This document shows, piece by piece, positions 9,514 to 47,070 of a stretch of 64,000 nucleotides of DNA (positions are counted from its first letter, which is position 1; every line of letters begins with the position of its first letter). The notes below the pieces were generated by a model. The model was not told the DNA's origin, did not search any database, and worked only from the letters and a program-made list of their open reading frames with translations. The stretch lies in assembly GCF_026571515.1 (NCBI RefSeq), contig NW_026853097.1:1-64000 (forward strand). Direction: 5' to 3'. The position numbers were made by a program, and so were the translations under genes. This DNA is from Ruditapes philippinarum (Eukaryota).

Positions 9514-11432
9514 TAAATAAATAACACATGTTTTGTGGGTAACTGTAAAAATATCATCCCGTTGGATGGAAATACTGTTACCCGAGGCGTAGCCGAGGGT
9601 TATATACGGTGGCACAAATGTGACATGTGTGTGTTTTTATTTATCTCGTGGCCACGAGATACTTTGTCGTGGCCACGAGTTACTAAGTCGTGGCCACGAG
9701 ATAGCTAAGTCGTGGCCACGAGTTACTAAGTCGTGGCCTCGAGATACTATGTCGTGGCCACGAGATAGCTATGTCGTGGCCACGAGTTACTAAGCCGTGG
9801 CCACGAGATACTATGTCGTGGCCACGATATAGCTAAGTCGTGGCTACGAGTTACTAAGCCGTGGCCACGAGATAGCTAAGTCGTGGCCACGAGATAATTA
9901 ACCAATCAGAATAAACTATATATATTATGAATTTTTTAAACTTAACAACTTTCTTTTACATGCAACATTAATCTTTGAAAATACTGAAGATATTCACTTT
10001 GAACTTGTCTTTAAGATCATATTAGAAAGTCATCTTCCAAGGCCCATCAGACATTAATTTTGACTATAGCTCTTTGTTGGGCAAGTTTGTGATCGAATTG
10101 GTCAGTTTGTACGTACTACGGCCTTGTATATACGATAACATGAGAAGGAATAAGTCCTGGTTTATTTTATTTGTAAGGGACATTGCCCATGGAAGTAAAT
10201 AGCCTATATGGTAAAATCCTTGTCTGATGAATAATTTAGAAGGGATAAGCCTGGTTAATGTAACCAAGAAAGATCATTGCACCTGATCAGTAGATGACAT
10301 CTAATACTTTCGAGGTCATTGGGTCAAAATCAGGGTCACAGTGACGCTAAATGTAAAATAATTGACAAGTCAACAAGTTGTATAAATGGCACTTTTACAG
10401 GCTGGTAAAGAAGGGGCATCCTTGTACTATAGCACATGTCTAGTTAATAAGGAAAATTCACATAAATGGTTTAATCTGATTGTTTATTTATCTCGTGGCC
10501 ACGACTTAGCTATATCGTGGCCACGACTTAGTATCTCGTGGCCACGACATAGTATCTCGTGGCCACGAGATAAATAAAAACACACACACACACATGTCAC
10601 CTTTGTGCCACCGTAGAAATAGCATTTTTACGAGGGATGATATTTTTACTGTAACTCACAAACCCATGTGTTATTTATTTTATTACCCGAACAAATACTG
10701 TGATGTCTAAAATTGTTAACTAAATCTATCTGTAACAAAAATAAACCAACAGTAACAATAACTAAACTGTCCTTACCTTTTAAGTTTTAAGTGTACCGTA
10801 AGCCTTCTTCAGAAGTTTTTTTCTTCTTTTATTCTTTAAGCAAGCAATGATATCTACCAGTCATAAACATACAATAAGTTATGTTTTATTTAGAAAAAAA
10901 ACCCACTAACATATTATACTGATACGATCTGTGAAATCTGATCCTTCTGTATTTGCATGGGTTTTGACAAAGTGCATTTACAAAATAACGATAATACCCT
11001 ATGTCTGTCCACCATATCTGTAACGTTTCACTGATAATTTTTTTTTAAATAATCCTTTGTTGCATGCTTTAATCGTCTGCATGTTCCAGTTTGATACATA
11101 ATAATTCACATTGCAATTTCTTTCTTTGAAAACGGATGTTACTTTTTGACTATTCAACAAAAAGATATTTTATAAGCGAAAAGCACTCCAGGGTGCAAAC
11201 AACTAGATTTTATGGGGGTCATAATTACCCTGGTGATTCCCTTTTGTCAAAGAGTGAATCGAGAAAAAAAAAAATTGCGGCCATTTTATTTTATTTTATT
11301 TAGAAAATAGACCACATGACCAGATTTTATACTGTAAAATTTTTTAGTCACGTGGTACACTTTTATTAACAGTAGGAATAACTCCCATAGGCCTATGTGA
11401 AATTAACATTTCGAAAGAAGTGAGGGGTAATA
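9514..11432. mobile_element. Non-autonomous split-palindrome (Crypton-like) element A, interrupted by a TA-TSD element
   Basis: Long hairpin with arm 9514-9585, apex CCCGAGGCGTAGCCGAGGG and second arm about 10620-10680. Internal TTATTACCC is matched by GGGTAATA at 11425-11432. The Crypton assignment is inference. Confidence 0.55.
9607..10613. mobile_element. Non-autonomous TIR DNA transposon with TA target duplication and subterminal palindrome arrays
   Basis: TA|CGGTGGCACAAAtGTGACATGTGTGTG...CACACACATGTCACcTTTGTGCCACCG|TA. Twelve left and four right copies of TCGTGGCCACGA at 21-22 bp spacing. Confidence 0.88.
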
Positions 11433-11810
11433 TATATGTATATACATAAAAGGTTAAATATGCAAACAACTGTTAGTATAGGGTCATATAGCCTGGCTTT
11501 ATAACTGATATTACATGTTCAAGAAAAACAAGTAATTATACCGTCCATAACGTATGACAAGATATCATTAAACAAATTAATCGTAACCGCGCAATGAGTA
11601 GCATACTTCATACAGGCACTCCTTTCGTTTGTTTGTTGAATAACTGATTTGAGTGACACCAGTTCTTCTAAAGAACACAGACGTTAGGGGCTCCTTATTA
11701 CGAATAGTAAATCTATGAGAATATTTATTTTTTTAGATTTTCACCATCCTTATTTAGATTCTTGTGTACAGATTACAGTACAGTATGATCATCCTGTCCA
11801 CAGGTGAAGA

Positions 11811-12275
11811 AGCAGAGTTTTTTCCTGCCAAACATGGCGCGTTTCAATACTAAATATAGTAATAACCTGTAAATAATAAGTAATAAGTTATAAATAATAG
11901 GTAATAAGTAATATTTTTTTATATAATACATGTCCCTCCAGGGCTTCCTTATTACGGTGTTATGTAACTATGATATATTCGACTGAAATAAGTAATAAGT
12001 GATAAATAGTAAATTATAAGTTATAAGTAGTAGATTATATTTAATAATTAAGTTAAACGTATTAAGTAAAAAATAATAAATAATAAAAAATAATTTTCCT
12101 TCCAGGGCTTCCGTTTTCGATATTGGTCTTGATCTGAGCAGAGTTTTTTCCTGCCAAACATGGTGCGGGGCAATACTAAATGTAAGTAATAATCTGTAAA
12201 TAATAAGTAAAAGGTATGAAGAATAGGTAATAAGTAATAATATTTTAAATGATAAATGCCCACAGGGCTCCCGTA
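11811..12275. repeat. Tandemly duplicated transposon-end fragments (AGGGCT[T/C]CC..TA ends with AATAAGT repeats)
   Basis: A ~140-bp block AGCAGAGTTTTTTCCTGCCAAACATGG...CAGGGCT[T/C]CC occurs at 11811 and 12137, with a third end-like motif at about 12103-12113. Confidence 0.55.
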
Positions 12276-14683
12276 CAATTCAGTTTATTTTGACAATGAA
12301 AAATGAGCATAATGACACTTTGAATGGGTAAGTTTTCCTTTAAAACATATAAATACAAATGTTGCTATGTACACATTCACCAGTTTCTTTTTAAATTCAA
12401 GCGATATGATAGTTTAACTACCCTTTTCGGAACATTGGCCATACCTGCATAACGTTTGCATTTAATGAACAAGTAGTCTTTATACTATCACATCAAGTTT
12501 CAAATAACGCCAAAGCGATGATGATGATTATAACAAAGGTAAAATGAAACACTTGCAAGGTCTCCTTACCCGAGTCTGTGATTGGTCGCTTTTTATATTT
12601 GCCAGGGAGGGATTTTCCCTGTTTTACATATTTTATTCATATGTATGATACATCGAGCAAATGTAGTAAATGTCAATTTACGGACTGATTTGAAGAATTA
12701 GCATTTCTTTCAAACAATTCTTTTAAAATGGCTTCGCGGTATGTTATAATAGTCGTATGATTTCCTAACATCGTTGACCCTAGTATCTTTAGTATCAATT
12801 TAGTGTATTGTGAAAATTTTAGCTGCTGCTAAAGGACACGACTTGTTTCGTTTTCATTGTTTCACTGGAACACGATCAAAATGGAGTCTACAATTTACTC
12901 CAATAAATTTTGGTTTTCATTGTGCTCGAGGGGATCTCCCTTAACCTTAATTTAAATGTCACATAAAAGATTATCTTGAACACTTCTGTTATACCTTTTT
13001 TAAATACAAATGTTTAAAGCCAGTAATAGCGAGTGGAAATTATCACAGCAGCACTCGTTAGCTACATCATGGTCTTTCAATTAGACTATTTGAAAGATCC
13101 TGGCTACATCGAGCTTTACCGTATTAAGCAGTCTAAAAATTTATTTTCCCGCTCTTACTTTATCATGTGATCAAAAGGATTTTAAAAAGGAAGAGGAAAA
13201 TAACACAACTCTTTTGAAAGTGTATCCAGTATAGTTATTGTTTGATTTGATTAATTAACCTGTCAAATTCATACTGATTATACGTACATGCACACAATAT
13301 ATTTATCTTCGATAAATGTTCGATATACGCAGTATGCAGTATGATGCGATAACATTTAATATGATTCTCTGAAATAGTTATACTGACCGTTATAGCACAA
13401 AAGGGTAAACTACCGGTTTATTTCTTAATGTTAGACGTGTTGTATGATCGCCACCGCGTATTTCTATTTTTTTTTCTTATTTAATTTTCAACATTATTGA
13501 AGGTATGATTGTTTTTTTTTGTTTTTTTTTGAAGTTGTTCTTTTTGTGTTCTTTTTATATGTTTTGCAATTATTTAGTAAAGATCATACTCTTTTTAAAT
13601 AGCATTAATATTAGAATCAAGAAAATCAATCAATAAATGTCAGGTCAATGCCGTATATTTCAATACAAAACAGACAGATCAGTATTTCTAAGTTGTTCCA
13701 TATTCGTGTAGACAATTTTGCAAGCCCTAGTTAGATAAAAAGAATAGGTCTGAAAACAATTGCAAAAGTAGGGATCGAACCACAGACCTCTCATATAATA
13801 GGTAATCACTCAACCGGCTGTGCCATTGCAAATATGACCAGAACGTAAACATTAAGATAGTGTGACTTTCAAAACATTATTCATATACTCCATATTAATT
13901 CTCGTAAACTATACGGACAAAACCGAAGTGAAATGAGTGCTATAATGTATTCATAATTGACAGGTTAATAAAATCAGACTATAACTTGTTATTGACAGAA
14001 TATTAGCCTTATTTGTTCTGTCTGTCCGCCACTAGGGAGTTGTCAAGCTCTCTTAAAATTATAAACATATGCTTAATAAATCATGAACTTTGCTAGTAAT
14101 CAATTTGTATTGTAATAAGTAATCAAAATCTAAAATAAAAAGAAATATAAAAAAGTAAAAATTAATTTCATTGAAGTAGACACACTATGTTATTAAAGTA
14201 CTTTATCGTACGATATTCTCATCTTACGAGAAAGGGAATACTTTTTACAATTTCCTGATTTTCCAAATTCTTTACCGATGTAACATTACTTTCTAGGAGA
14301 ATATATTGACTTATTTTAAAAGTGCCAGCGGAAATTAATGACATAAAATTGAAAGACGATGACGATTTTAAGGAGTAGCCGACACAAAATGGAATGTGAA
14401 AAAATGTTATTAATATTCGGGAGTAAAAAGAGCTTTATTATTGTGAGAAGACAATATTTTATGTAAATTTCAAAATATGTTAATTTGTTATAATTAGGTA
14501 AGGGCAAGTGTATATAGTTTATAACTGCATCTCGTATACTGTTTTCTATGATTTCGTAAAAGGAAAAAAACACATCAATTTACTTAAATAGTAATAGTGA
14601 AAATGAAGTTACAAACGGCATGGGTATGTCTTATAAATATGTTTTTTTCTTTTTACGACATTATTTCTGGGAAAGCCCTCATC

Positions 14684-16418
14684 ATTAGTCGCCGGTAGAA
14701 ACCGGCGACTATATTTGTAACAGTTTATTATTATATCTATGGTAGGAGAAGGCCTTAAAAAAATCTGAATATAAAAGCAAATCAATTACTGAACAATTAA
14801 GGACCACAATTATTTTTCATAATCTTAATTCAAACATAAAGTAACGTTTCTAATTGAAATGAAATATACAAATATTGACTTCTTAAAAAGCAACACACAG
14901 AATTAATAATGTATCCCTTTGGACCAGTCATTGAATTTAGGTATACTTTTACTTTTTTTCTAAGTGTCAAGCGTTGCTATTTTATGATTGATAAATCATG
15001 AATGATATTTGAAAAGACACATTTAAATTATTTGGTTGCTTATATCTTATGAGACCTATTATATTTCATTATTTTATCTAATTACAAACATATTCTCCCT
15101 GTTCTTTTGTAAGAATCACGTGACTACACGTTGTATGTTCTTGTTATAAAATCTATTTATAGTAACAGATTGCTGATAAGACTACAAGTAAAAGGCTGAA
15201 GAGATGCAAATGTATAAATAATAACAAAGTTATCTTTCATTAATCAGTTTCATATTTTATTTCATTAGAAAGGTATGTATACTCATAATTTACACATTAA
15301 AGAATAAGTTTTCAAAACCTTTTCATTTTTTCTTGGTAAAGGGTTAAACTTGGCCCTTTCTGTCAACGTTCAATAGTTTAGTTTAGGTTGAACATCACAA
15401 AATAGATTTATGCTTAAGAGGCACATTTATTGAAATAAATAGTGGTAATCGTCGTCTTCGTTATATTCCGTCGATTTCCGTCGCCAGGTTACCAAAACGG
15501 TATGACGGTAGGGATCCGGAATCGTATTAGATGCATAAAGAAAACTAATAAAATATCTTTTTGTTTATATTTTATCGAACTGAAAGGCAATTAAACGTAA
15601 ACTATATCGTATGTAACGACAGGAATATTAATTTCAACTAAATTATATATTTTTTCGATAGCGCGGAAGAATATTATTTTATGCAGATACCAGTTTTAAG
15701 GTAGAATTGCATTGTTTCATGCAATAATAAAAACATATATATTTTCAAATATTCGATGACCGTTAATTATTTGGCGGTAATTATCGGATTCTGAAGTAAA
15801 CAATACGGTTTCGATATCTGGTATTACGGTATATGTATAAGGTAGAATTACAAGTAGAATTACAAGAATATCACTCGCCTTACAAAATTAATCAAAATTA
15901 TGAATAAAAAAATGCTACAAATGAAACACGCTATATTAACTTATGTTTCATATAGTTAAAAGAAATAATAAAAAATAGCTTTATGAAAACTGCAAAAGGG
16001 ATTTTCAAAGATTCGAACTTGGCCTACTAGGTCACATCTTCGTCATACTTACCACCACTAGGCCATCGAGCAATATTTATTGATTTAATATCGAGATCTA
16101 TACTATCAATAAAATCGTTAGCATTAATCATAATAAGTTATATAACGAAACACCTCCCGAAAATTAATGAGTCTCAGGTCAATATTGCCAGACAATACTT
16201 GCTTATTTAATAATCATAGCAGTTCCTTGACAATATTGCTAAGCAAGTTTGCTTCATATAATTATGATGTTTTATTGTGAATAAATAGTCACTCAACCTA
16301 TTGTTCCTCTTTTCTTTATATTTGAACCATTAATTAAACTGATATTTTCTTATATTTATGATAATACAATCATTTTTCTATCCGGCGACTTGATGCTTAA
16401 GCATCAAAATCTCTAGTT
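14684..16418 (+). mobile_element. Helentron-associated non-autonomous element (HINE/DINE-1-like)
   Basis: 5' hairpin AGTCGCCGGT-AGAA-ACCGGCGACT at 14687-14710. The 3' subterminal CCGGCGACT is followed by a perfect 18-bp palindrome TTGATGCTTAAGCATCAA (16390-16407) and CTAG-TTTT. Confidence 0.7.
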
Positions 16419-17059
16419 TTTAGTATTATTATATATATTTTGTTTCATACTATGAACATACATGTTTCCTTTTCTGTATAAGCTATATTCTGTTTTGTAT
16501 TTAATGTTCTCTTTATGTTGCATGTAAAACGTTAGTGAAATTGTACAATGTAGTATAATTGTATTAAACTATATATAGTAACTAAAAAAGGACATTAAGG
16601 TAATTAAATGTTCATTTATCGATACTGTCAAATGAAAATACAGCAGTGATACAACATGTAATAGTTGTGTAAATTGCTGCATCAAACATTCGCAGTATAC
16701 GTGCCACTTGTGTTTTACTGCCCTTTATTCTTTCCGTTGTTGTTGTTGTGTTTCTTCTGGTCCTTCAGTGTCAATGATAATTGTAAGGTTGAAAACCGAT
16801 TTGGAACATTTGCATCTTTATATTTTGAGTATATTTGTTATCTTCATTTAAATAGTCAACTCAACATAATAAATTCAGGTAACAGTCCATTTCATTGCTT
16901 ATATAGATAAATACTTGGATATTTTTAAATGCGATAATGTAGGGACTCCACTGAGGTTTTTTTGACATGACAGGACCGAATAAATATATTTTTTAAACTT
17001 TATGTAGGTGTGAACCAATAACTCGTGTACACAATTTCATATCATTCGCTCACTCCGCT

Positions 17060-18802
17060 TATTTTGGATAATTTTGTCAGATGCACAATTTGGGTTTAGA
17101 AAAGGAAAATCAACCATTGATGCTTTATTTAGTCTAATGACAGTTGTTCAAAATTATATAAATAATAATTAACGTTTGTATTGTGTTTTTGTAGACTTTA
17201 AGAAGGCTTTCGATTGTATATATAGAAACGCGCTTTGGTTAAAATTAAGTAATTGTGGGATTAGAGGTAAATTGTTACGCCTAATAAAAGACGTGTATAG
17301 TAAAGTAAAATCGTGTGTAAGGTAATGTAATAGTTACTCAGAATTCTTTAATTATGCTGTAGGTCTACGTCAAGGGGAGGTAATTTCACCGATTTTATTT
17401 TCCCTCTTTTTAGATGACTTTGAATTATTTTTACAAAGGGATGTAAATAGTGGTTTGACTTTAAACGATATTGTTTTGATTTTGTTACTGTTCGCTGATG
17501 ATATGGTCATTTTAGGAAATACATCAGATGATATAAATAGAAGTTTGACATTATTAAATGATTATTGTAAAAAATGGAGCTTAGATGTAAATATCGATAA
17601 AACCAAAGATGTTGTTTTTAGAAAACGTGGAGGTTTAAAAAACAATTAATTATTTTATTACGAAGGGAAACATATAGATATTGTCGATAGATTCAATTAC
17701 TTAGGAACAATATTTACTAATACTGGTTGTTTTAATTTAAATCAAGAACATTTGATTGGTAAAGCTCATAAAGCTCTAAATGTACTACTGATTAATTGTA
17801 ATAGATACCAGTTAAAACCTAAAGTGTTATGTCAGCTTTTTGACACTTTTGTTGGTTTAATTTTAAATTATGCTGCTGAAATCTGGGGTTTTACTAAATC
17901 AAAGGAAATTGACAGACTTCATCTTAAATTTTGTAAAAAGATATTAAATATAAAAGTTAATTCATATAATGTTGTATTATGAATTAGCACGTTATCCTTT
18001 ATATATTTCAAGATATGTTAAGATTTTAAGATTTTGGTTTAAAATGCTTGAGACAGATAATATCATTCTTAAAAATGTATATAACATTGCTCTTGAAGAC
18101 AGTAATAATGGTAAGAAAAAATGGTTATCAAATCTAAAATTGTTATTATGTAATCATGGTTTTAGTGATATTTGGGATTCTGTAAATAGTAACATATTTT
18201 TACCGATGTTTAAGCAAAGGGCAATTGATTGTTCTTTTGGTAAAGAAAGCAGTCCTGTTTTGTATCTGTAAAATCATGTTAAAGATTCTTTTGTATATTA
18301 TGAAAACTATCTTGATATAATACCAAGTACTTTAAGGATCTTCGCATTCATTACATGTGCAAACTGGTAGGTTTCATAGAAATAGAATTAGTTAGAAATG
18401 AAAGATATTGTTTATATTGTAATCTACATGACGTCGAAGATGAATACCATTTTATTTTAATTTGTCCTTGTTATATTGATATAAGAAAAAAATATATAAA
18501 AAGATACTATTATATAAGACCTAGTATGCTTAAATTCACTGATATGTTAAAATCAAACAATAGAAGTATACTTTTAAATTTATCCTGGTATGTACGAGAT
18601 GCGATGTCTCATAGAAATTACTTAGATATAGTACATACAACTTAATATATTATAATTCATCCTCTATATTGATATGAAAGAGACATGTTTAGATGCAATC
18701 TTGTGATTTATATTGGTATGTATTGTAAAATTGTTTATACATATATATGTATGACGATGTATGATTGTACAAGTAAAAAAATTAAATATCTGTTCTGTTC
18801 TG
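17060..18802 (+). mobile_element. 5'-truncated decayed non-LTR retrotransposon (RTEX/Proto2-like ORF2: RT plus C-terminal CCHC)
   Basis: QFGFRKGKSTID, FVDFKKAFD, GLRQGEVISPILF, LLFADD and C-terminal RYCLYCNLHDVEDEYHFILICPCY, with stops and frameshifts. ATTAAA plus a (TCTGT)n tail at about 18781-18802. Clade is inferred. Confidence 0.9.
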
Positions 18803-21200
18803 ACAATTAAATTTTATTGCACTAATTGACCCAAAATTGAAAAGCTTTGAAACGCTTTTCACTCAAATCGACTGCAAGACTGCATTAAAAATCGATCATC
18901 ATTTTATTAACGAGTATAATTATACATTATTATATAGTTTTCCATTTTAAGCTCATCTGTTGATTTATGAAAAGACTTCAAATGTTATGCTTTCGGGATA
19001 TTAGACCTCAGTGGACTTTTTATAGAGGGGTTCAACTGAAGTCTAAAAACCTAAAACAAAATTTTTGATTTTTAAGAAAAAAATTCTTACATAAATCAGC
19101 TGGAGGAAACAAAACAGAAAGATAATTAAGATATATACTTAAAAAATCATATTGTTGTGCTTTTCAGCCCGACTTGAGTGGAAAGCCTTTAAGCTTTAAT
19201 CTCGGGTCATTTTTCACAATTAGAATAATTATTCTGGAAAAAACGAAGCGAGCAAATGATCTGAAATTACACAAGTTATTGGTCAATGCCTACATCAAAC
19301 GGAACATTAATCTCTTAAAATTATTTCAAGTCCCGTCATGCAAAAAAACAACCTGTGTCCCTTTAAATCCTTATTATTTTTTTTTGGAACCTTAAAATGA
19401 AACAATTATCAACTATAGCAGCATATCAGCCAGATCATTTCATTGGCTTATAAAAGAAACAGATAACAGAAAGTTGGATCAAGATGATCAAAGATTGAAT
19501 TTTCATTTGTAGTTAAAATAATGTGATCAAGACAATACTAAGTCGTTTAACGAAGTTATGCATCGAAGGGGAAGCGTTTCAACAGCTCTACCCACTGTTA
19601 TGGACAAAACTGGAATAATATTGCTAAATTATAATTGAAATAAGCTTGAATGTACCTGAAGGTATTCTATACTTACAAACATATTTCACACGCTGAATGT
19701 TTTCCGATGAAAATGCAGCTAATACCACTGATTATACCATAATCTTAAATGAAGATTTAAATCAGAACAGAACGCCGATGCACGTGTCTGTATTTAGCCC
19801 ACTATGGATAATGATTATGTGGGATAGCAGAAATGTAAAACGCCCGTCTAAGGTCATAATCGCTTTCTATAAATAATAAACTGATGCCACCCTGTAAATG
19901 ATGAAGTTTTAAATATTGGGCGTACAATTAAGTAGGTTTATGTTACATTAAACTGATCAAGTTACAGACACGACGATGGGAATTGCGACGTAGTAGTGAA
20001 AACATAATAAGATACCGATATGTCAGCCACATTATAAATTGCAACCAACATCCCCGGCCTATTGAAATTTTATTTACGTTAGCTTATTTGAATAAATATT
20101 ATAAGCATTTTACAAGTTGCATAACTTAAAACCTCAGGGGTGATCAAAACGTTTGTGGAAACGTGTAAGTGTTAGCTTAGTTATTGAACCTATGGTCTCA
20201 ACGTAAGACAAAACAAATTCCGACAGTAATCTCTCAAACTGCTGACTTAGTCTAAGAAAGAAATATCTGATTAACATATAAATATGACAACAATCGAGTC
20301 AGAAACGAAAGTATAGTGAACCCATAGTTACCAATGATTGCTTAAATCAAAGAAAATTATACCAGCCGTAACGATCAGTATCGCCAGCCTTGAAAGTCAA
20401 CCTGACTTATTATAGTGTTATTATTCTTCACAAGTCAAGAAGTGTAGAAACACGTTTGCGGATTTAACTAATTTCTATATATAGCGACATTTTCATGTTA
20501 AACTATTAGAAGACATTTTCATGTGTATGAGTCATGTAAGGTAAATTGCTAGGTAAATAAAGGACTGTTGTACAGGAACAAGTTCTTGCAACAGTTTCAA
20601 TTATGGTGTGTCAGGGGACCATTAACGCTTCTCATTCGACGTATCTAAGTATAAAATCAGCGTTGTTTGTGTCGTCTGCTTGTTGTAAAATGTCTTTCCA
20701 TACGTCCATACGCAAGATCGAGCAGCATGATATGCATGGTGTGTATATGGTAATCTGGATTCTCTTAATTTTGTTTTTATTTATATTTCAATTACCAATG
20801 CTTCATAATTGAAAATATAGCAGTCTCCGAATGTCCGGTAACACCAGATTTCAACGTTTAAAACGGAGAAATATTCGCAGATTTGTTCACACGCTCAGAG
20901 TCGACATAAATTATTTTGTTGGCGTCAACCTTGAAAATATTTTTTAGACGAGTACTTTTCTAAAGGGCGTGTAATTTTGTAATCAAATGTGTAAATTGAG
21001 CAAAAAATGATAAATGCTTGTATGAAATTAATCTCGACTCAGTAGAATTATCATGAATATCATGTGTTAAGAAAAGAAATAGGAAGCATCTTACCGCGAT
21101 ATTTTTCATCACCCCTCGAACATTCCCCAATATAAAAGAGGTTGACCTGGAGAGAAAAAGACATTTCCATTCGCTTGATGCTTCTAATATATTTGTATGA

Positions 21201-21274
21201 TATATAAACTTCTGAAAATGTGTGTACTAGATAAAGCTCATATCTGAGTAACGCGTGTCAGCCGCAAGGTATGT
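21201..21274 (+). promoter_or_regulatory. Candidate TATA promoter with short non-coding first exon
   Basis: TATATAAA at 21201-21208, Inr-like TCATAT about 35 nt downstream and a strong donor AAG|GTATGT at 21268/21269. Motif evidence only. Confidence 0.3.
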
Positions 21275-21765: not shown

Positions 21766-24468
21766 GGGGTGGAACGTATAGCGGTGCGATACTCCTTTAA
21801 GCGAGGTGAAATCATGCGATACGGACTTATGGCGGATTTATTCGTGTAAACACACGTCAGAGTGAGTGTATTTTATTAATTATTTATTTTATTAATTATT
21901 TCATAAATCTTCAATTACAATTACATATTTTGTATTGAAGATGTGAAGATAGGACCGACACATATTTCATCAAAATTACAAGGGCTTAAATTCATACTTA
22001 AAAAAGTTATTGAAAGTAAACTGACGGCAACTGATTTTGTGTCGGTGAATAAAATCGCTAAAAGCAAGCTTATATTAATATAGTTTATTTCTTTTTCTTT
22101 TTTATTCTATAAGGGTAATCATAATTGATTTGCATAGCAAGTACCTTTGTGCTCCTATATCATGTATATACATAGAAGCTTACCGGACAAAATTTTTGAG
22201 TGTACGCTGGGTTTTGGTGCGATGAAATAACTGTTCGCTATTAAAGGTTCGATATTTGTTCATTTTCACATTTGTTGTACATGTTTCCCTATGATAACAC
22301 TAAGAGATCTACCATATGTGTCCGTTTCCGGATTTCTGAAAAAAAAGGTTTGATATCTTCTTCTTTCCTTAAGGATTTACTTCAAATAAAAGTTTCGTAT
22401 CACTATTTATATAAGTGTTACTATTTGAACTAAATTTTATTAGTTAGATTTCTACCTGTGATAATTAGGAGTTGGAAAAAGTAAACTTTACTCTAAAATC
22501 TTAGAAACTATATTTCTTGTCCTTTATCAATTTTAAGCAACGTTCATAGTTACAGTATTGTCATTCCAAAAATATGTCGCCATTTTCAACAACAAGAGTC
22601 TTGTTTTTGTACTGTATCTTGTTTGTGATTTATTTCTAATTTTGATCATAGAATTTGTGTTGAGTTTTGTTTCTGTAGTCTAATTTATTACTGAAGAATC
22701 CATGCAATTTAATTTTGAAGTTTATTTTCCACTTTCGTTCATCTATGATATGTTTGTCATTTGATTTTGCTCTTGATATTAATTAGGCAATACTGTATTC
22801 CTAGGCATTATTTCGAGCTTATTAAATTAGCGCTTTTCGCGTTGAGTATATTTCCGCGAATGTTTGTATCCGCAAAAAATATGCATGTAACAAATTCTCA
22901 AAAAATTGAAGCTTATAATTTCTACAGCGCACATCACTCACATAAAAGTTCAAACTGTTTTTTTAACTCAAACTTGCCACTTAGGCAAGGAAAATACAGC
23001 AGTTTACACACATTTAGAAAGACAATAGCTTGCGTAAGAGATCAACAGAATCATGTTAAAGGAGTCTTTAGGAACCTTAACAATAGTAAAACAGTATATG
23101 CCATCATTCCTTTATTCATTCTGCAACTTTTATATGTTGATATATACATTTTTTAATTTATTTTTATTCAAAAAGTAGGAATAGTAGGAATATTCATAAA
23201 AAGGAACAGAGTAAGAGTATGGCAAAGAAGTAGGAAATTAGGCAAAAGTAGGACTTATTTCAAGCTTGTATACTAAAATGGCCATAATGGCTTTCATCTT
23301 TGACCTTAAATGACATTAAATAAATAAGGGTCATCTAATAGGCTTTTGTCAGTGTTTTTTTTTAATTTTCTAAAAAAATATATGTAATATCCAATCCATA
23401 AAAGAAATCAAACAAGTATTTTTTAAAATAAATATTTCAAGTCACATTGCAAAAAAACAACAACAAAAAAACACAAAAAAAGAAAAACACAACAACACAA
23501 TTTATAACATGTACTTCGTACTTCTCAAGGTATTGAATGAACATTAGAACGGATGGTAGGCGTGTTTTTCCGACAAGTGCATGTAATAAATAGTAATTCC
23601 ACTTCTCATATGTTGCTGTTTTAATTAAAGTTATTTTTTCTCTGACAACATAAATATGTAATTAATAATAGAAAAACATGTTATTAAATGATAAAACCTT
23701 TACTGAATAAATGGAATAAACAAAACGAATATTATCGTTACTATTGCTTATTTGATAAAATTTTAAGTTTCTGTGCAATAACATATCTAATTTTAATATT
23801 TAACCTTTGTGAGATGAGAATATTTAACTTAACTTTATCATAGTACAATGTATAATACATTAATTGACACTACTGTTTTAATTGACACTGTGATTTACAT
23901 ATGATAAACATACAAACACAAAGCTAAATATTTCATCAATATTGAATAAGAATGTACTGTAATGAGGAACTCCCCGTCACCACAGAAAAACACACCAAAA
24001 TTTGTGCGTACAGTTGGTTTCTCGGGCCAAATATTAGGCGTATAGTAAGAAAGCTGGAAATATTATATATATTTTCGGATAGATATGGAAAACTACTCTT
24101 TTATATCGTTTTGTTATCAAAAATAAACATGTAAGGACGTAAACTAATCGAATATCTAGTTTGAAAACTACTGATACATTATTTGTTTGCATGTGTACAT
24201 CAGTTTGACGGTTGAATTTGCAGCAAGAAATACCTCAATAACTTCCTCAATACTATAAAATTTAGTATTTTGTTTTGACGATCACGCATAATTATTAGTT
24301 CTGATCAGCATGCACAATGCTTTTCTTCAAGAAATTACAGTAGACAACAAATATTTGAAAACAAACATGCGCATACCCACTTTCGTTTTCGTCTTCGACG
24401 GCCATTAGTCCGTATCGTATGGTTTCACCTCGCTTGAAAGAGTATGGCACCGCTATACGTTCGACCCC
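21766..24468. mobile_element. Non-autonomous TIR element with ~70-bp TIRs and GGGG termini (ISL2EU/Harbinger-like)
   Basis: Left GGGGTGGAACGTATAGCGGTGCGATACTCCTTTAAGCGAGGTGAAATCATGCGATACGGACT versus reverse complement of right GGGGTCGAACGTATAGCGGTGCCATACTCTTTCAAGCGAGGTGAAACCATACGATACGGACT. No clean TSD and no transposase ORF seen. Confidence 0.75.
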
Positions 24469-35190: not shown

Positions 35191-35357
35191 TGTCGTAGGG
35201 TTCCTTTTTCCTAGTAAAGGGGGGCTGTTTCGGCCTGTAATGGCACGAAAACAAATAAAATAATTTACTTAAGTGGAAAGAAGAAGCAACACAGCCATTT
35301 CGTGGCGTAAACCAATGGAAGTATTTTCAATGTGCGCATGCGTGCCTTCCAATCCGG
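35191..35357 (-). repeat. Gypsy 5' LTR, PBS-proximal part
   Basis: Ends ...ACA on the minus strand, followed by T-TGG PBS. Homologous to 25169-25335. Confidence 0.75.
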
Positions 35358-38215
35358 GTGAGTGAATGTTAGGTCCGTCTAGAAGAAATAAGTTGTTATG
35401 AATTATAGAATGACATTGAGTGTTACATGTTGCAATGAATGAAAAGGATGAATGAAAATGAGTAAAATATGGGAAATGAATAGGACAAATATATAGGACA
35501 TGTACATATATGATATAACAAAAATGACAAACGTACAGGGGATAAATAACGACACAATATACAGTTGAGTTCACACTAAACTTCCCACCCTTGTGCTCTT
35601 CTAGTGCACTAGAGCTGAACTAGAAGTGCACACCGTGTGCATTTCTAGTGCACTAGACCACATGACCAAACTGGCCAGGGAAGGTGACACCTTAATGGTT
35701 TATTTGATAATTGCATAACTAGTGACAGGGGGCATCCATTGTTTAGCCATGGAACAGAATTAGTGCATTTATTCCATCTTGCTTGATGATATTTGGACTT
35801 ACATTATGCTTGCTTTCATATTTCTTTTTGACAATGGAAACCTTCGCTTTGCTTAATACAATTAGCATTATGATTACTGAATGCACTATCATGCAATTGC
35901 AACTTCAAATGTTCCTTTCCAAACCATCAAAACTCGCATATTTTAATATGCTTTATGTTTAGTTCCATCTGTTTTAAGGACAGCGTATTATGTTCGGTGT
36001 TTAAGTTAACATTCTTTGCTTGTTCTTGATATAACTAGATCTAAAATGGTAAGGTCATGTAAGTACCTTTATTTGCTATAAATCTGCGCCTTAAATTGTC
36101 GACACTATTTCACAAAAAATAATTGATTTTGATCAATACTTGGCGAATTTGACGTGTCTTAGCATTCATATGCTTCAGTATATTCTCTGATTACAAATAT
36201 AATGCAATACATGATCGCACAGCACCGACAACGCAGATGACAACGATAGCAATATTATAGTCGCATGTTACAGTACGCACTAAGCAGCTGGCGGTAAGCA
36301 TAATGCGAGAAGCAATATTTTGTTTTCATATTATGACAGCAATTGTCGCTTTGTGGGTACATCCCGTTATTTTCCGGATGGTCCCGCTATAATATTTTGG
36401 CACGTGGAGTAAACAAGGTTACATCCCTTTTTATATGGGCGTATACCAAACAGTGTTAGTTGGGGCTGACATTTTGATAAAATCAAGAAGACGATGCGAC
36501 AGGCGAAAAGTGCGTGTTTTTGAAGATTCGGCCAGCATGTGACAAAAATGTAGTAGATGTCTCTTATAACTCCTCCTACAAGTGGCAAATCACATCTTAT
36601 AATGATTGTTTATACAACTTTTTGAGCGTGTTCCGTAGTCGTATGTGTAATAGTGAACTTGAATTTAAAGGTATATTATGCTCAAACTTGATATTTGAAA
36701 ATATTGTTTATTGCTTCACAGTCTTTTTGTAATATAAAATAAATATCATTTGGATTCACACAAACATTTTGCTTTAAATTCTATACACTATAAGTGGGTA
36801 CTATGAATATATAGTGTTATTAAAAGAATATGGCAGTTTCTTTAAGACAGGCACAACTTTACTTGGCCCGTAATAAGGAACGCAGATTCCCATACATTTT
36901 ATTTATGTGTTTTTATTAAATAAGACATTTTCAGTAAGAATTTAATATATTTCAATAAATTTCTGTATTAAAAATATATTACTGAAAGATGCGCATAGTA
37001 TATCTTTAAGCACAAATGTATATGAATGTGGTGGTGGTGTGAGGGGTGTCTGTGACACAGTTAATTGGTGACTTGTAGATCCATTGGGCCGTGTACTATA
37101 TAATCACACACACATATGCTCATTATTTGTTATTCGCTATACACATGTCACAATAATAAACAGCTTCCTTCCTTCCTCATTATATACTGTACTGCGTAAC
37201 ACACCTATTCACCACTATATATATTAGTGACTCTGAGACATTTGTAAAGTCAATAAGCCAATAAAATTTGCCTTTTTAATGTTCAAGTCATTAGATAAAG
37301 ACCTTTGCAGCACATAGGCAGGTGCTTTACAACTGGATGACAGCATTATATGTTTTGATAAGGGAGTACACTATGACCCCTATTGCATGAAACTGACAAG
37401 TATATATTCCATCCCAGCTCATGAACTTTTCTTTGGGCTGAGCTGGTAGTTGGGATGGGTGCAGCCCTTTAGCCAAGGCCTGAATCCGCCACTGTATAAC
37501 TGCCCCCAAGAATATTTTTTTTTCTATAAGACTGTATACATATATAATATTATATTGCATTACCTTTTTCTACTTATATTTATATCCTATCCTGAGCAAT
37601 TTATTTATTTAGTGCTTGGTACGTATTTATATAATCGCCAAAGAATACCGTTGTATGGTCACAGCAGTTTATGTACGGAAAATTCCGATGCTAGGCGAAA
37701 TGTGGAAAAATTACGTTGATCTCGATAACAGAGTTCTCGCCCCTTAACATTTCGCAATCGCAAGACATTGTTTAAATTGTTTATATATATTTTAAGATGA
37801 TCAAACATAATCCAAAAAACATTAGACACCGAGCTTTATTTAGCAAAAACACTAAATAATGGAAATAAGTGAATCAAAGCTAATAAGTAATCACGCCATG
37901 TGAGCGATAAATGATATAAGTCACACTTTAACAAAATCCATCGTGTAATTTTAGGTGTACAAAAGGAAGTATAGAATAAAAAAAGTCGATTTCAAATGAC
38001 TTCTACATAAAAGTAATACAAAAAGAACTAAAGCGTAAATAGTTTGTATAGAGCATGAAGAAAGGTAGCTTATACATAAAGGTAAATGACGTTAACATTT
38101 TAATATTCCAAAACAGTACGATAAATGGCCTGTGCAAGTTTAATAGTTATCACTCAATGAAAGAATTAGTCACTACGAAAGTTTGAATGAAATAATGAAA
38201 AAAAGAATGCAGCTT

Positions 38216-38368
38216 AATGCAAAGTTACAATATCATAAAGCAGGATGAAATCAATCATAATGCAATTTCCAATGTCATCAAGCAAGATGGAATCAAGCAT
38301 AATGCAAGTTCTAATGTCACCAAGCAAGATGGAATCAAGCATAATGCAAGTTCTAATGTCATCGAGCA
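38216..38368 (+). repeat. 42-bp minisatellite, about 3.5 copies
   Basis: Unit AAGCAAGATGGAATCAAGCATAATGCAAGTTCTAATGTCA[C/T]C. Confidence 0.85.
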
Positions 38369-38704
38369 AAATACAATAAATGCATTAATTTTGTTCCATA
38401 CAATATACTGTGATAATTTAGTATGCCCGATATTTTTTAAAGATACAAATAATAAACATATTATCCATAAGATAAATAAATTTGATAACTTTATTCATGA
38501 TTTCAATATTAAAAATTTAATGTATTACTATAAAGGGAATACTTTTATTGAAGATCTCAGGAAAGTCTCAAGTTATGCTGTGTATTGGTATTTTCTGAGA
38601 GCGACTGTTTTCATTATACCACTTTCTTGCTGATAAGAGGGCCTCAGGGTAAATAACAAAAATGCAGATTATAAGTATGCATTGAAATTCCCTGGTTTTC
38701 ACAA

Positions 38705-39551
38705 AAATGCATGTAGCCGCACTCAGTTGCAGTAGCCATCGCAACTTGGGATGTGTGAACTCGCGCATAGTCGTGCAGGAGCAGAACACATTGAGTCAGT
38801 TTGCCCCTCCTTTTACGCGCGATTTCTTGACGCAGACGTCTCGATTCGTCTGCATAGTACGTACCGTTTATGGTACGACCTTGCTCAAGTCAATCATGAT
38901 TATCCCCTTACTATTAAAAATATATTGAACCCATCATCTTCCCTGCTGATGGCACCTTCTTGAATTTCTTCGGAGGGGGTGAGCTAGGGTGCTTCCACTG
39001 CATGCTCTGGGGTTTTGTTTGGATTCTGGATCGAAGTGATGGACCTATGTTTCATCCTTAGTTACGATTCGGTAGATAAAATCAGGTTAATCCTCGTAGC
39101 GAGAAAAAAGATATCTTGAAATGTCAAGCCTTGTCCGTTTCTGGTCGTCAGTCAACTATCTGGGAACCTTTGACATGCCATTAACATCAGAATTGCCTGA
39201 ACTGAACCAAAGCTTATACCCACTTCCCTAGCAATGCTTCGCAGATCTCGCATTATGTCGCAAATGACCAGATCGTCCACAGCTTCTGCAGTTGCATCGT
39301 TGGTAGCCTCTTTTGGCCGCCCAGGCCGCTCATCATCTCCAATACTCTCCTTGCCCTTCTTAAATTCAGCAGCCCATTTTTTCACAGTGCTATAGGAAGG
39401 GGACTCCGTCTCAAGTGTATCCATTAAGGCTTCATGGATTTCCTTTAAGTACTTCCCTTTCTTACATAGGTACTTAATGACGGATCTGATTTCAACTTTC
39501 TCCATTTGGTCTAAATGACACACCCCTCTCATGATCAAAGTATGTTTTATG
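38705..39551 (-). mobile_element. Decayed mariner transposase, 3'-truncated
   Basis: MEKVEIRSVIKYL...SPSYSTVKKWAAEFKKG...DDERPGRPK (HTH), then a frameshifted VTKDET*VHHFDPESK block and VLLLHDYARVH. The third catalytic Asp region is absent. Confidence 0.92.
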
Positions 39552-42500
39552 TTATTTGGGACAACAACAAAACAATATCATACTTTAACTAATTTTATTT
39601 TATAGTCATACATAGTGGCATATGTAATTTATCTCACTGAGTAATGTCTTAGTTTATCTTTGGCATTTTATGGGCACGACTCCATTAATAAAAGCCAAAA
39701 GGTTTGGATACCGGGCATACAAAACCCTGTTAGGGCATCCATAGCAAAGCAAACAAATGACACAAAATCAAAACAAGCAAATGGAACAAACTGTATAGCT
39801 TTTTGGAACAGTATGTTCTAGAAAATAATTGATCAAAGCAATACTAGTCTTTCAATTCTTCATTCACAAAATAGTCAATGTTCACAAATGTATATGAGCA
39901 ACAACACAGCATTGACACTGTTGCGCGAAATTGGTTCTGGGAAGCAGAAACCAGTATCGCCAGTATCACAAAATGTCTATTCGCCGGCCGCAAAATGCAA
40001 ATTTAGCAGACCTAGTATTTGAAAGTTCATAGAACACATCTCTGGAGTCGCACCGTTGTCGAATTCTCTCTGCTGGTGGTTTTGGCCCAAGCAGTTTTCC
40101 TAAAAGATACCTCTTCCGTAGTATTTAGTAGGGCTAGCTGTCTTGAAACACGTCGCTTATGTTGGCTAATCTGAAAACATATCAAAAGAGGACAGAAACA
40201 ACAAAAAAGCAGGATACTAATATTAAATTTAAGCTCAAGTCTTTCACACTTCACACTCATAATTGACCGAGGAGGGCGGGTGGGTTTTTTCAACAATTCA
40301 TTTCTTCCTTGTTACAATATTCGACGCCAGCGTTAAAAGGATATGACGTAGATACAGTACCTACGTCATAACCAGGGCAGGGTATAAGTTGTTCCCCAAA
40401 TAACAGAGACTATTCTATAGAAATAGTCATCATTATCTGGGACAACAACAAAACAATATCATACTTTAACTAATTTTATTTTATAGTCATACATAGTGGC
40501 ATATGTAATTTATCTCACTGAGTAATGTTTTAGTTTATCTTTGGCATTTTATGGGCACGACTCCATTAATAAAAGCCAAAAGGTTTGGATACCGGGCATA
40601 CAAAACCCTGTTAGGGCATCCATAGCAATGCAAACAAATGACACAAAATCAAAACAAGCAAATGGAACAAACTGTATAGCTTTTTGGAACAGTATGTTCT
40701 AAAAAATAATTGATCAAAGCAATACTAGTCTTTCAATTCTTCATTCACAAAATAGTCAATTTTCACAAATGTATATGAGCAACAACACAGCATTGACACT
40801 GTTGCGCGAAATTGGTTCTGGGAAGCAGAAACCAGTATCGCCAGTATCACAAAATGTCTATTCGCCGGCCGCCACTAGACTTCGGATGGTGAACGGGAGA
40901 TTTCCCGTTTTCCAGTCGAAGGCTCCGCCAATAACATATAATATTGGCTTCGCCAATATCATACTATTATTGGCTCCGGCGAATTGAATACTTGAAAAAA
41001 AATTAGTCGTGCCCAGCCATTCTATGATTTATAATACAACACTGCCATGTAGGTAATGCAACTTAGCAAATAAAGCAGCATTCCAACAAATATGCATATA
41101 CTAGCGCTCATAAATCAAATATGACACTATCTGAAACACAATAATTTGGGTAGTAACCACCAAGATCTCGAGTTCAGTGTCATTTCTCCTGACATGAATT
41201 TAGCAAAAGCATTCAATTTTAACTGCTCCAAATATGTGCTAGTTAAATGTATATACATTTGACGGTGCATTTTTTCGAGATATTAATTTAGCAATAACGT
41301 TCAAACTGCTTCAAATATGTGCTAGATACATGTATACAATAAGTGCATTCAATCAACTGAACTATAAATTATGCATCAACACATCAACTTTTCATATATA
41401 CATTTCCTGAACCACTCTATGCCATAGGTGTTCGGCGCGCTGATCGGCCACCCACCCCACAACCCTCCCACCCCCCAAAACCATGTAAACTGCAGTATTT
41501 TTCATTTGAAACATGTTTTAATATTTGGTATATGCTTTTAATTCAATAACCTTCATTTCCCACAAAAAATAAAAAATTGATTAATTATTAATATATACAT
41601 ATTTAGTAAAGGTATGCAACTCGCTGCACATTTTTCAGCACTCATCTTAATAATAATTGAACTCCATAACCCCAACGTTTTTTTTAACCAATTTTCAATA
41701 TTATGGTTCTGAAAGGTTGGAGGGCCGCAAAGTGGGCGAGGGTCCCCCGGGGGCAGCCACCAACCAACGCGCCGAAAACATATGCCCAATACAATAGTGA
41801 CCATCAAGATCGTGAGACCTGCATGACTCTGAGAGCAGATATTTCCAATTGCACTCCATGGGTTCGAATCCTTCCAATTCAACCAACATGTTTAATAATG
41901 TTACATTAATCAGGTTTCCATTTGTTTTTAAATCGCATGATGTAAACTATTACACTCCATGCGGTAAAGAAAACTAGCAACAATTCAATGCATCATATCG
42001 TCGACAAGGCAGAACACTGGTATTACATTTTAGTATGCTTAGCACCTATTGTCATTAGAATAGCATGCAATATTAACGTGTTAGAAATTGTCCTAATTTT
42101 TTACCCCACAATTGTACATAGGTTGCCACAATTGTACATAGGTTCGAGCTATATTTTTCAATTTGCAGCATTTCACACCACCCATCCTGGTCAGTCCTGG
42201 ACTGTCTTTCTTACAACTACATGTGAAGCGCTTATTCAAAATAGTGACTTATACTAATATACTTAACTGAGCTGTAAAAAGATTTGAAACAAATAATAGA
42301 TTTCATGGAATATTTACTAATAAAATATCTTTATTGGCCAAAACATACTAAATTCCCAAACTTCAAGAATAATGGTTTAAGCTTTTTGTTGGACATAAAT
42401 TCTACTGCCAGTGTTATAAGCAATTTAACAAAATATTCTTTCACTGGTCAATTTGCAGCATCCAGCTATACTGTCAGATTCTGTATTGGTTGTTAGTCAA

Positions 42501-43737
42501 TTCAACCAATTAATAGACTTAAATAAACATTGATTATAATAATACTAACGTATTTACATTTTATTTTAATTGAAAGCCGCATTCATTAATCTATCTGCAA
42601 TACAGAAAGCATTTGCTGATTATCAGCCAAGATATTTTTGATTATCAAATTAAGTAGCTGCTGAAAAAAAAATTGCTTAAGAATATGGTAATTTAAGATT
42701 TTGAACAAAGTGAAACCTTAGAACATTGCCAAAGTATTTGCATCATTTTATTTAAACATTGTAAAGTTAGTGTTTTTATGTGCCTTAATATGTTTATTGT
42801 TAATAAAATAATCCAGACAGAAAACGACAAAGTTTATTACCATGAAGATAAAAGGCAATCATTTTAAGAACAAAAATTATATAAATATGGTATGGACTCT
42901 GAAGTGCATAATAATTTATTACAAAATTATGAAAATATTTGTACATTAAATGATTTAATTGACACTAATCAAATAGAATTTAAACAGTATTAAACAGTAT
43001 GTAATAGATATTTTTGACATAACGCATAATGCCCATCCAAGGCTTTAATTATATAATGAGTGAACAGGTGAAAGTCAAATAAGTTTACATCTTGCAATAA
43101 TCTTTTCAAATTTATAATGTACTTTCCATTTTTGAACGATAAATTAATGCAATTGGAAATTACCCAATCAATTTATATAAGTTTGGGACAGTCTTTTTTA
43201 AATTTTAGGCATACTTATATTTTATCATAAACATTTTAAAATGTCAGCTGTAGGTCAATAACATTTTTTCAGTCAATTATTTGAAACATAAAGTCAATTC
43301 AGCATAACTTGACCATGGCAAAATAGGCACAATGTCATTTTAATATCATAACCATGTTATTTTGTAATTAATAGGGTGTACTTTTTCACAATGAAATATT
43401 GTTTCAACACCGAATTTAAAGTAAGACGATTTATATTAACATTTTAAATGTCAAACGTCATACCCTATATGAGTTTACATAAAATTGGTCTTGCAATTCA
43501 ACCAAAGTTGGGTATTATACTAAAGCCAAGAGAAAACTGTCTTGAATGATTTTTCTTTGAAATAAAAGTTAAACGTTGAATGCATGATTTTGTGTAAATA
43601 TTATCAACAGTGTTTAACACTAAAATTTAAGAAGGGTGTTCACTTTTATTACTAGTTTAGGGGAATGAGTACCTATCATATAGCATAAGATTATAAGAAA
43701 ACCTAAAGAAATAGAAAACTTTTAACCTCTTAATTAA

Positions 43738-44242
43738 AGGGAGACACAGGCAAAATTTTCATTTCTTAGTTTTGGATTTTTCATTCACTATTCTGTTAAT
43801 GCCCTCAAAATGAATATATAAGACAGTCAATGGAACAAAACTTTTGTCCATATAAAGAATAAAATGGTGGTTTCCTAACTTGACCCGCGTGGGTCAGGTT
43901 AGAGCGCTATGATTTCGCAATATTTGTCAAAATGAGCTCTGGAAACGTTAAAGAACATTTCAAATGAATGACATAGACTTGTTTCAATCATACAATATCC
44001 AAAATATCTGTTATTGTAACTTAAAAGGTTTGTTCAGGTCACCTGACTTGTTTTAAAACTATTTGGTGATTCTATTGGCGTCTAAATTTTGTTCAACATA
44101 TATAGATATATTTACGTTTCAAACCCAAAATATATAGAATTCAAACAAAATCATGCTGAAACTTCAAGAAATGTCATTTTAGCCTGATTTGAGTACGCAA
44201 ATCATTTATATATCTTTGTCATTATTTTGCCTGAATATCCCT
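43738..44242. mobile_element. Kolobok-type MITE (TTAA TSD)
   Basis: TTAA|AGGGAGACACAGGCAAAAT...ATTTTGCCTGAATATCCCT|TTAA. Confidence 0.75.
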
Positions 44243-44589
44243 TTAAAGTTTTAAGTTTAATTATCTGTAGATATATGGTCAAACTATAAGAAAAAATAAA
44301 AAATAAATGATATACTTTCAAATTTAAAGTTTTATATTTGGATGGTGTTCACTATGCCTAAATCATTAAAAGAGGTTCATAATAATTTAATAAATAAGCT
44401 ATTCATTTATTATATTAAAATATTTATCTTTTTAGGTTGTGTAAAGTAAATAAAAGGTACAATGGAAAATAAATTTTACAAGTGAACTACAACTTGTCAA
44501 CTTAAAATTGCAATAAATTGTGTGTTATAAATCTGTACTATAATGTAGCCTACACCATTAATTATAAACAACATAGTCAAACAAAGACA

Positions 44590-44890
44590 ATTATTAAAAA
44601 TTATTATTATTATTAATTTATTATTATAAATAATTTATTATTATTATTATTATAATTATGAATTCATGATTGTCTTATTATTATCATTAGATCACATCAT
44701 CATTATTATTATTACTATATTATCAATTCATTATTATTTTTATTATTATTATTATTATCATCATCATTAATAATTTTTTTTATTATTATTATTATTATCA
44801 ATTCATTATTATATATTACTATTAATTTATTGTTATTATTTTATTTTTATATAATGTTTATTAATTTACTATAATTATTATTATCTAATA
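44590..44890. repeat. Degenerate (ATT)n/(ATC)n microsatellite
   Basis: Directly visible low-complexity run. Confidence 0.9.
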
Positions 44891-46211
44891 TCTTAATCTT
44901 GTGATTGATGTTGCATTGAAGTCTGTATCTTTTAATTATTGGTGCATTATTAATTTATCAGTTTCTAATTAATGTGATTTTAACCCCTTCTTATCCAACA
45001 TAATTTGCTAATTATGCATACTTCATTTTACCATAAAAACAACAGGCCCTAAATTAAGGCAATGTATTCACATCTATGTGACTATGATAACAAATAATGA
45101 AATATAACTGAATAATTATTTTGTTCAACATGTAGATCTAAACCTAGGTTCCACATTGTAAAATAATGTATAAAATAAACATTTAAACAGGAAATACCTC
45201 ACCTAATACTGTAAGGAACTAAACTACTACCTCACCTAACATCAGTCACCAATTTATCTCATACCACAATTCATCAAATGTCAGGAGTCATCACAAGAAG
45301 CTGCTGATCACCATCGCATTTATTTCCACATTTCCCATACAGACCAGTAGTGTTGTCTTTAATCACATTCTTCCAATCTCGTCCAGCAAAAAGAAAATTA
45401 TAGATCTATTTTGAAGATTTAAAAGCAAATAAAATATATTTTAAAACTGATTAATAATAACTGATTTATTATGAACGTGTTAGACTTATAGACACCTTTT
45501 TTCCCGAATTCAGGACAATTGGCACAAGTTAACAAAAATTTCTTGCTTCCACCATTCTTAACGCCATTGAAAATAGCAAAGTGCACCTAGCTAGATGAAC
45601 CCTCCATCATTTCTTTTTTTAAAGGTTTTCATTACAATCATCATCGTTACCACACAGCGAATGATTTATCATTATAGCGAGATACAGACATAGCTAAATG
45701 AATAGCCGTGGGTGAGAGTAGATCCATGGATCGTCATAATAAAATTGTCAATTTACGATACTGTACAGTAAAGCTAGACAAAGTACAACCTTATGTTCAT
45801 TTCACAAAACAATGCATATGAATAATTTAAAATTAAACTGTTCTCGACAACAATCTTTTGAAGATCTAGATCTCTAAATCTGAATTGACTAAGAAAACTT
45901 CTCTGTCCATATAATATCCTGCTTGATTCAGTGTTCCATGTAAAAGGCATGTTCCCACCAAAGACATCAAGAACAAATCCGCTTCAATCGTGGAAAATAT
46001 CAACAAAATTGCTGCTTATAGGACACACAGATAATCACTGACGTCTTATCGATTCATATTTAAAAGATACTACTATCGATTGTTGTTTTGATCAGCGATT
46101 TCTTTTGATTTTTTTCAACAATTCATTTCTTCCTTGTTACAATATTCGACGCCAGCGTTAAAAGAATATGACGTAGATACAGTACCTACGTCATAACCAG
46201 GGCAGGGTATA

Positions 46212-47021
46212 TAGAGAATAATAGGTTGGTGCCGTGGATTGAGAAAGTTTATCTGGCGAGGCGGAGGAATTTATTGGGTGAGCCGAAGGCGAACCCAATA
46301 AATTCCGGAGCAGAGCCAGATAAACTTTCTCCATCCACGGCACCAATCTATTATTCTATTTATCCCGTCACCGTTTTTTTAAAGAATTTTATTAGGCAAA
46401 CAACCTTTAATCACACTATCGGAAATGTTTCTATATAAACAAAGAAGGCCCTAATTTTTCTACACCAATGCACTCGCCGTTCTTATTATCTCCCCGTGTA
46501 TTTTCACATTGAGGGCGCCATTTTGTTTGAAAAATGTGATAAATAAAAACAATTTTTTGTCGAATTTTGTTGTGAAAACTATCTAGAATGAAAGAAAATG
46601 GTCTAACTAAGAAAATGAATTCGGATACCAATATCTTTTATTCAGTCGTTAACGCTGTACAGACGTTTAAAGTATTGTTTACGTGACGTCACAATGTAGC
46701 GCCAAACAGCACGTGCAAAACAATCAAATCAAGTACGCTATTCTAAAATGTCGCAAACAGTTAAATTTTACATTTATTTCACTTTAAATAATTTTTATTT
46801 CGCTTGAAAAATTATAGAGTGAAATAAAATAAACAAACAAAGTTTTATCAACGTTTCCAAAATTCGTTATTCTACACACAGAAGATTTAACGACAGTTTT
46901 TATATTTTTTCTTGAAAAGTAGTCCGGCAAACATGCATACCACGTGATCAAGTGCCGTAGATCAGTAAAAATATACGGCACCTTGTTATCGGGCCGAAAT
47001 TGAGACAAGTGACAGGATAAA
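46212..47021. mobile_element. Non-autonomous split-palindrome (Crypton-like) element C
   Basis: Absent from the homologous position in unit B1 (GGGTATA|AGTTG). It has a ~150-bp terminal hairpin with apex GAGCCGAAGGCGAA, and internal TTTATCCCGTCAC inverted to the terminus GTGACAGGATAAA. Confidence 0.8.
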
Positions 47022-47070
47022 AGTTGTTCCCCAAATAACAGAGACTATTCTATAGAAATAGTCATCATTA

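Follow-up and report, generated by a model that had tools for sequence, protein, structure and literature searches.

The 64,000-nucleotide stretch of Ruditapes philippinarum DNA analyzed here (assembly GCF_026571515.1, contig NW_026853097.1, positions 1 to 64,000 of the forward strand; below, the window) carries three mobile elements, A, B, and C, with a similar end layout. In this design, a terminal sequence recurs in inverted orientation close to the opposite end, and a hairpin runs from directly after this inverted copy to the terminus, so that the joined ends match the reverse complement of an internal site, the mirror. An initial annotation had ascribed all three elements to one cis-acting signal of a circle-based mobilization system, driven by either a tyrosine recombinase or an HUH enzyme. 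Our data indicate that C is, and A likely is, a gene-less CryptonA derivative whose joined ends probably pair with the internal site in a folded single-stranded circle, whereas B is likely an unrelated element of the Helitron2 type. A single system for A, B, and C is not supported.

The sequences quoted in the initial annotation were all found in place. We compared the 26-nt junction of each element with the reverse complement of its interior and scored random intervals of equal length in the same way (n = 3,000). The score of C was reached by 1 and that of A by 2 of the 3,000 intervals, while that of B was reached by 23 of 3,000; the split-palindrome match is thus real for A and C and weaker for B. 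The absence of target-site duplications (TSDs) is borne out by the empty sites of all three elements. By the same evidence, A and C have neither TSDs nor terminal inverted repeats (TIRs); at most 1 to 3 AT bases are ambiguous at their ends, and a 4- to 6-bp terminal direct repeat is not present. Multi-copy loci of A and C place the ends where the initial annotation had drawn them and retain the internal complement.

Element C, which sits near the far end of B, has a terminal hairpin whose foot carries a 2-nt bulge and whose 3-nt tip loop is set between small internal loops; one base at its crossover can be assigned to either side. A genome search yielded 2,432 first-look candidates, and the 40 copies that were scored are near full length and 96 to 100% identical. 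Both ends are present in 29 of 30 loci (L017 is truncated, and L025 is nested), and all 30 retain the internal site with no more than two substitutions. Its empty site, free of duplication, is seen in other copies of B and in two public runs, as a skip of 810 bases. The long, recombinase-encoding copies that the initial annotation had suggested looking for do exist. A search of the genome for DUF3504 gave 149 matches among the 150 scored of 393 candidates, 60 loci were taken, and the partners of C were traced from one locus with a hairpin resembling that of C. Three of them (L281, L282, and L283) are 3.3- to 3.5-kb elements in which both ends of C flank a recombinase frame, matching C over 90 to 118 bp of one end (85 to 98%) and about 200 bp of the other (81 to 91%); L284 has the hairpin end of C only. 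The L282 locus scores above the PF12012 cutoff and retains the H-x-x-R, H, and Y motifs. When the frames of the 3.3- to 3.5-kb partners were read by eye, only recombinase-type frames and no reverse transcriptase were seen. Because both of its termini are common to the DUF3504 recombinase elements L281 to L283, C is a gene-less (nonautonomous) CryptonA derivative. Furthermore, a head-to-tail joint of C at L331 is exactly the predicted circle junction, and tandem joints were also found in families F2 and F5. For C, the circle-based tyrosine recombinase reading is thus supported by its shared ends and this tandem junction, and probably also for A, which shares one end with recombinase loci.

The interior of C (46415 to 46900) has a contig depth about 10 times that of the ends, and it has matches in elements adjacent to other hairpins (L197, L199, and L294). 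Therefore, several mini-families may have one common interior combined with different ends.

The design extends well beyond this locus. Among 14 multi-copy DUF3504 groups, ends could be defined in 11, and all 11 have the joined-end design, with letters that differ by group; the ends of F9, F10, and F13 were not resolved. All 11 families with defined ends have long hairpins, and in the eight hairpins that were folded, the stems keep pairing as the sequence changes. The mirror crosses the junction in register, the bulge is always on the terminal arm, and the junction is two bases longer than its mirror in C, F1, F2, and F4. The hairpin tip has a single orientation in the seven A copies listed with an intact tip and in 6/6 F1 copies. 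We conclude that the Crypton end design is real and conserved. Relative to the recombinase gene, the hairpin is downstream in seven families and upstream in four, and in a tree of 27 recombinase proteins from this genome only (one per group or single locus) the latter four form one weakly supported clade (80/90). This distribution suggests, tentatively, that the side of the hairpin follows the protein tree and that the gene was inverted once relative to the ends. Two further candidates, L165 and L170, were considered as short-hairpin Cryptons and rejected, their repeats being separate palindromic elements that flank the gene. The end of F10 resembles the start of B, yet an internal mirror was not found.

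The copy of A in the window is old, being about 82% identical to other copies, and about 1 kb of it is a nested miniature inverted-repeat transposable element (MITE) that is no part of the joined-end design; the length of the family is about 940 bp. Its genome search gave 2,387 candidates, of which 40 were scored, and 29 of 30 loci retain the internal site. The recombinase loci L299 and L332 both start at the A terminus, at exactly the same base, and match A over 165 to 204 bp at 92 to 95%, with weaker similarity further in. A is thus likely to be a gene-less CryptonA derivative as well. Beyond the A-like end, L299 and L332 share a downstream region of over 2 kb, in which just a remnant of a hairpin is left; this region has a third copy at C13149, and the related loci L299, L332, and L333 lie on G000:C15136 and C1229. 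The 21-bp array of the nested MITE was also found at L225. Copies of A and C are inserted in copies of their own family (L040, L046, L025, and L021 are involved), and two C copies adjoin each other tail to tail.

A and C insert at a mirrored target around a 6-bp spacer, leaving neither a duplication nor foreign bases. The genome is 1.4 Gb in size and AT rich; adenine makes up about one-third of the bases. In 26 copies of A, the left half of the target reads A at -10 (16 copies), a pyrimidine at -9 (24), and A at -8 (26), and the right half T at +2 (25), a purine at +3 (26), and T at +4 (19), positions -9 and -10 having been counted by hand. C shows the same mirror in weaker form, with A at -8 (24), T at -7 (19), A at +1 (25), and T at +2 (28) in 33 rows, one locus being counted twice. 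The right half of the B target is like that of A and C (T at +2 and a purine at +3, each in 31 of 31 rows, one of them misanchored), but its left mirror half is missing (by hand count, A at -8 in 15/31, a pyrimidine at -9 in 13/31). Among the copies that have an empty site, it is exact in 4 of 6 for C, 2 of 4 for A, and 4 of 6 for B; the remainder show run-length differences or are diverged, nested, or misanchored. Tyrosine recombinase sites are described as inverted repeats around 6 to 8 bp (PMC3212892; here and below, statements on published systems refer to the available portions of the cited articles).

Element B had been delimited incorrectly. The junction described initially is present at about 40432/40433; however, it is the inner joint of a longer composite, in which a long unit starts directly after the 3' end module of a short unit. 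Both units have the same two ends, and the piece at 46110 to 47067 is the far end of B itself. All 20 extended loci start with the short unit and 18 of 20 reach the far end, while solitary copies of the short unit and of the long unit are present among 20 other loci, the short ones varying in length. The window copy of the long unit contains C and an unrelated 500-bp insertion (about 43740 to 44242), which has short inverted ends and is missing in the other B copies compared. In one public run, the left flank of B is joined to position 47068. The subterminal repeat at 40388 to 40403 lies 30 bp from the end, upstream of the hairpin. The first base after B is T in 24, A in 6, and G in 1 of 31 rows, with zero duplication. 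As published, Helitron2 and Helentron elements have an asymmetric terminal inverted repeat whose 3' copy lies 20 to 30 bp from the end, upstream of a hairpin; the layout of B is that of these ends (PMC3627910 and PMC4067079), a correspondence that had gone unrecognized. With its 21-nt hairpin, compared to 100 to 190 nt, and a target that lacks one mirror half, B does not support one cis signal common to all three elements. It is likely not of the same class as A and C despite a similar layout and is probably of the Helitron2 type. Searches for coding remnants in B gave no above-threshold Pfam match in 19 frames of at least 55 amino acids and, by tblastn or a homemade profile, no recombinase remnant; none of 94 genomic Rep matches lies at the repeat sites listed (100 of 118).

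Other descriptions of B were rejected. It is not an 883-bp element with a partial tandem copy, since it extends to 47067. Its repeats do not occupy both termini, which, together with the lack of a TSD, argues against an ordinary long terminal repeat element and against KolobokP, in which long direct repeats at the termini are each bounded by TIRs of their own and a TSD is present (PMC9587614). L203, considered as an old ancestral B, looks rather like a copy with homopolymer errors. B is inserted at the upstream edge of a mariner-type transposase relic on the minus strand (39155 to 39551; Mos1 helix-turn-helix, Pfam HTH_48).

Table 1. Features of elements A, B, and C in the window
Feature	Position	Strand	Size	Remark
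Element A	9514..11433	-		Likely nonautonomous CryptonA
Nested MITE	9607..10613	.		Separate, TA-flanked, in the A hairpin; long inverted repeats, palindromic 21-bp array
Internal mirror of A circle junction	10665..10688	+		
Element B	39552..47067	+	7.5 kb	Composite of short and long units; likely nonautonomous Helitron2/Helentron type
Short unit of B	39552..40432	+	881 bp	Also occurs alone
3' end module of short unit	40388..40432	+		Subterminal inverted repeat, 4 nt, 21-nt stem-loop, 4 nt
Long unit of B	40433..47067	+	About 5.3 kb without insertions	Also occurs alone
Final 3' end module of B	47023..47067	+		
Element C	46211..47021	-	810 bp	Nonautonomous CryptonA; strand is that of the partner recombinase gene
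Terminal hairpin of C	46211..46358	-	About 150 nt	
Internal mirror of C circle junction	46348..46371	+		Hairpin foot plus inverted copy of the opposite terminus

The window holds several other repeats. At 55448 to 57148, a microsatellite is followed by ten 169-bp repeats organized in a higher-order pattern of 338 bp, as is usual for HINE satellite arrays of bivalves. There are also a 2.7-kb element with 68-bp inverted repeats (21766 to 24468), a 240-bp foldback (48499 to 48741), a 185-bp direct repeat whose copies are 632 bp apart (50070 to 50891), and a 100-bp hairpin (62217 to 62316).

By analogy with integrons, we tentatively propose a scheme for the movement of animal CryptonA elements, which might integrate via a folded single-stranded circle carrying an attC-like site. 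In this scenario, a circle of the element would form, and on one of its strands the junction would pair with the internal mirror, so that the hairpin is lengthened to form a double-stranded site bearing a 2-nt bulge. A recombinase provided in trans would then exchange this single strand with the double-stranded AT-rich target, and replication would resolve the product, as in attC x attI recombination. With only a single strand exchanged, the 6-bp spacer would not need to match; we favor this route because the spacer varies freely and the exact empty sites are without foreign bases. Such a process would represent, in eukaryotes, the counterpart of the recombination of integron cassettes, having converged on the end layout of Helitron2.

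Several observations weigh against these interpretations. The circle-junction search suggested in the initial annotation covered four public runs and gave neither a circle joint nor a go-back joint among the 15 of 39 joints listed, and no circle or single-stranded form was seen; contigs cannot establish that these forms are absent. The hairpin dominates the fold energies, which provide no test of the junction pairing. Each partner of C is either decayed or not demonstrably intact, with stops in L281 and L283 and broken frames. The link between A and a recombinase is one-ended because the hairpin end of L299 and L332 was not found within 3.8 kb further on and because their common downstream sequence is unlike that of A. 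With respect to B, no partner of either class, recombinase or Rep/helicase, was found; the 5' hairpin typical of Helitron2 is not evident by eye; and the first four letters of B are those of most Crypton families in this genome.

Instead, A and C might recombine as ordinary double-stranded circles, following the standard Crypton model of circle excision and integration (as cited in PMC3212892), with the mirror and hairpin serving another step, for example by forming a cruciform, by priming or terminating replication, or by providing an accessory binding site. Any tyrosine recombinase would be compatible with a mirrored target around 6 bp, and the lack of a single-stranded form among the joints listed is in keeping with such a route. 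However, two-strand exchange across a nonmatching 6-bp spacer should leave foreign bases at the junctions, and the exact empty sites have none; nor does this route account for a mirror that spans the junction in register with its bulge always on the terminal arm. We therefore regard it as somewhat unlikely. Two near-identical sites inverted on a circle could also allow the recombinase to invert the hairpin, as Flp inverts part of the 2-micron plasmid, but the asymmetric tip has one orientation in the copies examined and the sites are merely about 150 bp apart, leaving this idea scarcely credible. As for B, it could itself be moved by a tyrosine recombinase, as a short-hairpin Crypton, and the single system would then be right after all. 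Its first four letters, in-register mirror, right target half, and lack of duplication would all agree with this; yet the left mirror half of its target is missing, long hairpins characterize all 11 recombinase families with defined ends, no B end is present in any recombinase locus examined, and another HINE-type end in this genome has the same repeat-spacer-hairpin spacing as B. On balance, we consider a short-hairpin Crypton unlikely. It is very improbable that B is a nonautonomous split-direct-repeat retroelement of the Ngaro/PAT type: while its 439-bp and 150-bp repeats do give the minus-strand layout A1 ... B1 A2 B2 and the composite has spread as a unit (18/20 loci), the short and long units occur alone with insertion sites of their own, solo units at L212, L218, and L205 have exact empty sites, the length of the short unit varies, and no reverse transcriptase or recombinase remnant was found.

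The movement of Cryptons has not been shown so far, and their ends have been described as nearly featureless. Given a conserved end design, a rule for the target, and multi-copy substrates that are young, the mechanism can be tested with one enzyme on short DNA substrates, and the end design offers a rule by which thousands of marine repeats without genes can be classified. Caution is needed, as the joined-end layout alone cannot separate a Crypton from a Helitron2.

The likeness to Helitron2, Helentron, and HINE elements lies in a terminal repeat whose inverted copy immediately precedes a 3' hairpin, the very design proposed initially for all three elements (PMC3627910, PMC4067079, PMC7492417, and PMC5148889). 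With Helitron2, B shares the 30-bp spacing (PMC3627910 and PMC8969392), the 5' T, insertion upstream of a T, the absence of a TSD, and multiple termini; Helitrons are known to carry several termini within one element, and Helitron2 members exist whose repeats are not hairpins (PMC5148889). Unlike Helitron2, B has no clear 5' hairpin, its left flank is not T rich, and no Rep/helicase partner was found for it, whereas A and C differ from Helitron2 in having 150-nt hairpins and recombinase partners. Compared with DIRS1, A and C have no long inverted terminal repeats, and no reverse transcriptase was seen in the partners of C. The internal complementary region of DIRS elements serves the circularization of cDNA. 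What DIRS1 shares with A and C is an internal sequence complementary to both termini and a tyrosine recombinase (PMC13465315 and PMC4157794).

Integron attC sites are folded single-strand substrates with unpaired bases and a variable terminal structure, acted on by a tyrosine recombinase and resolved by replication (PMC2727003 and PMC3458562). They are bacterial and unrelated in sequence, however, and in the elements described here the site is split between two ends plus an internal copy; the parallel is a working analogy only. Among Cryptons, the 4- to 6-bp terminal direct repeat of the fungal and oomycete elements is found in neither A nor C. Terminal repeats were not found in animal Cryptons according to PMC3212892, and the available text of PMC13465315 and PMC8969392 says much the same; since the missing repeat agrees with the animal group, membership is not excluded. 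We found no Crypton paper that describes this end design, which Repbase/Dfam notes and subscription papers, both outside our search, may already mention; the available text of PMC5753468 links Eulor5/6 to Cryptons and does not mention a hairpin. Finally, the CryptonA elements of PMC3212892 resemble those described here in encoding a DUF3504 recombinase and nothing else, in being accompanied by abundant gene-less derivatives with both ends, and in lacking TIRs and TSDs. Not part of that description are the asymmetric inverted repeat, the long terminal hairpin, and the defined target seen in the elements analyzed here.

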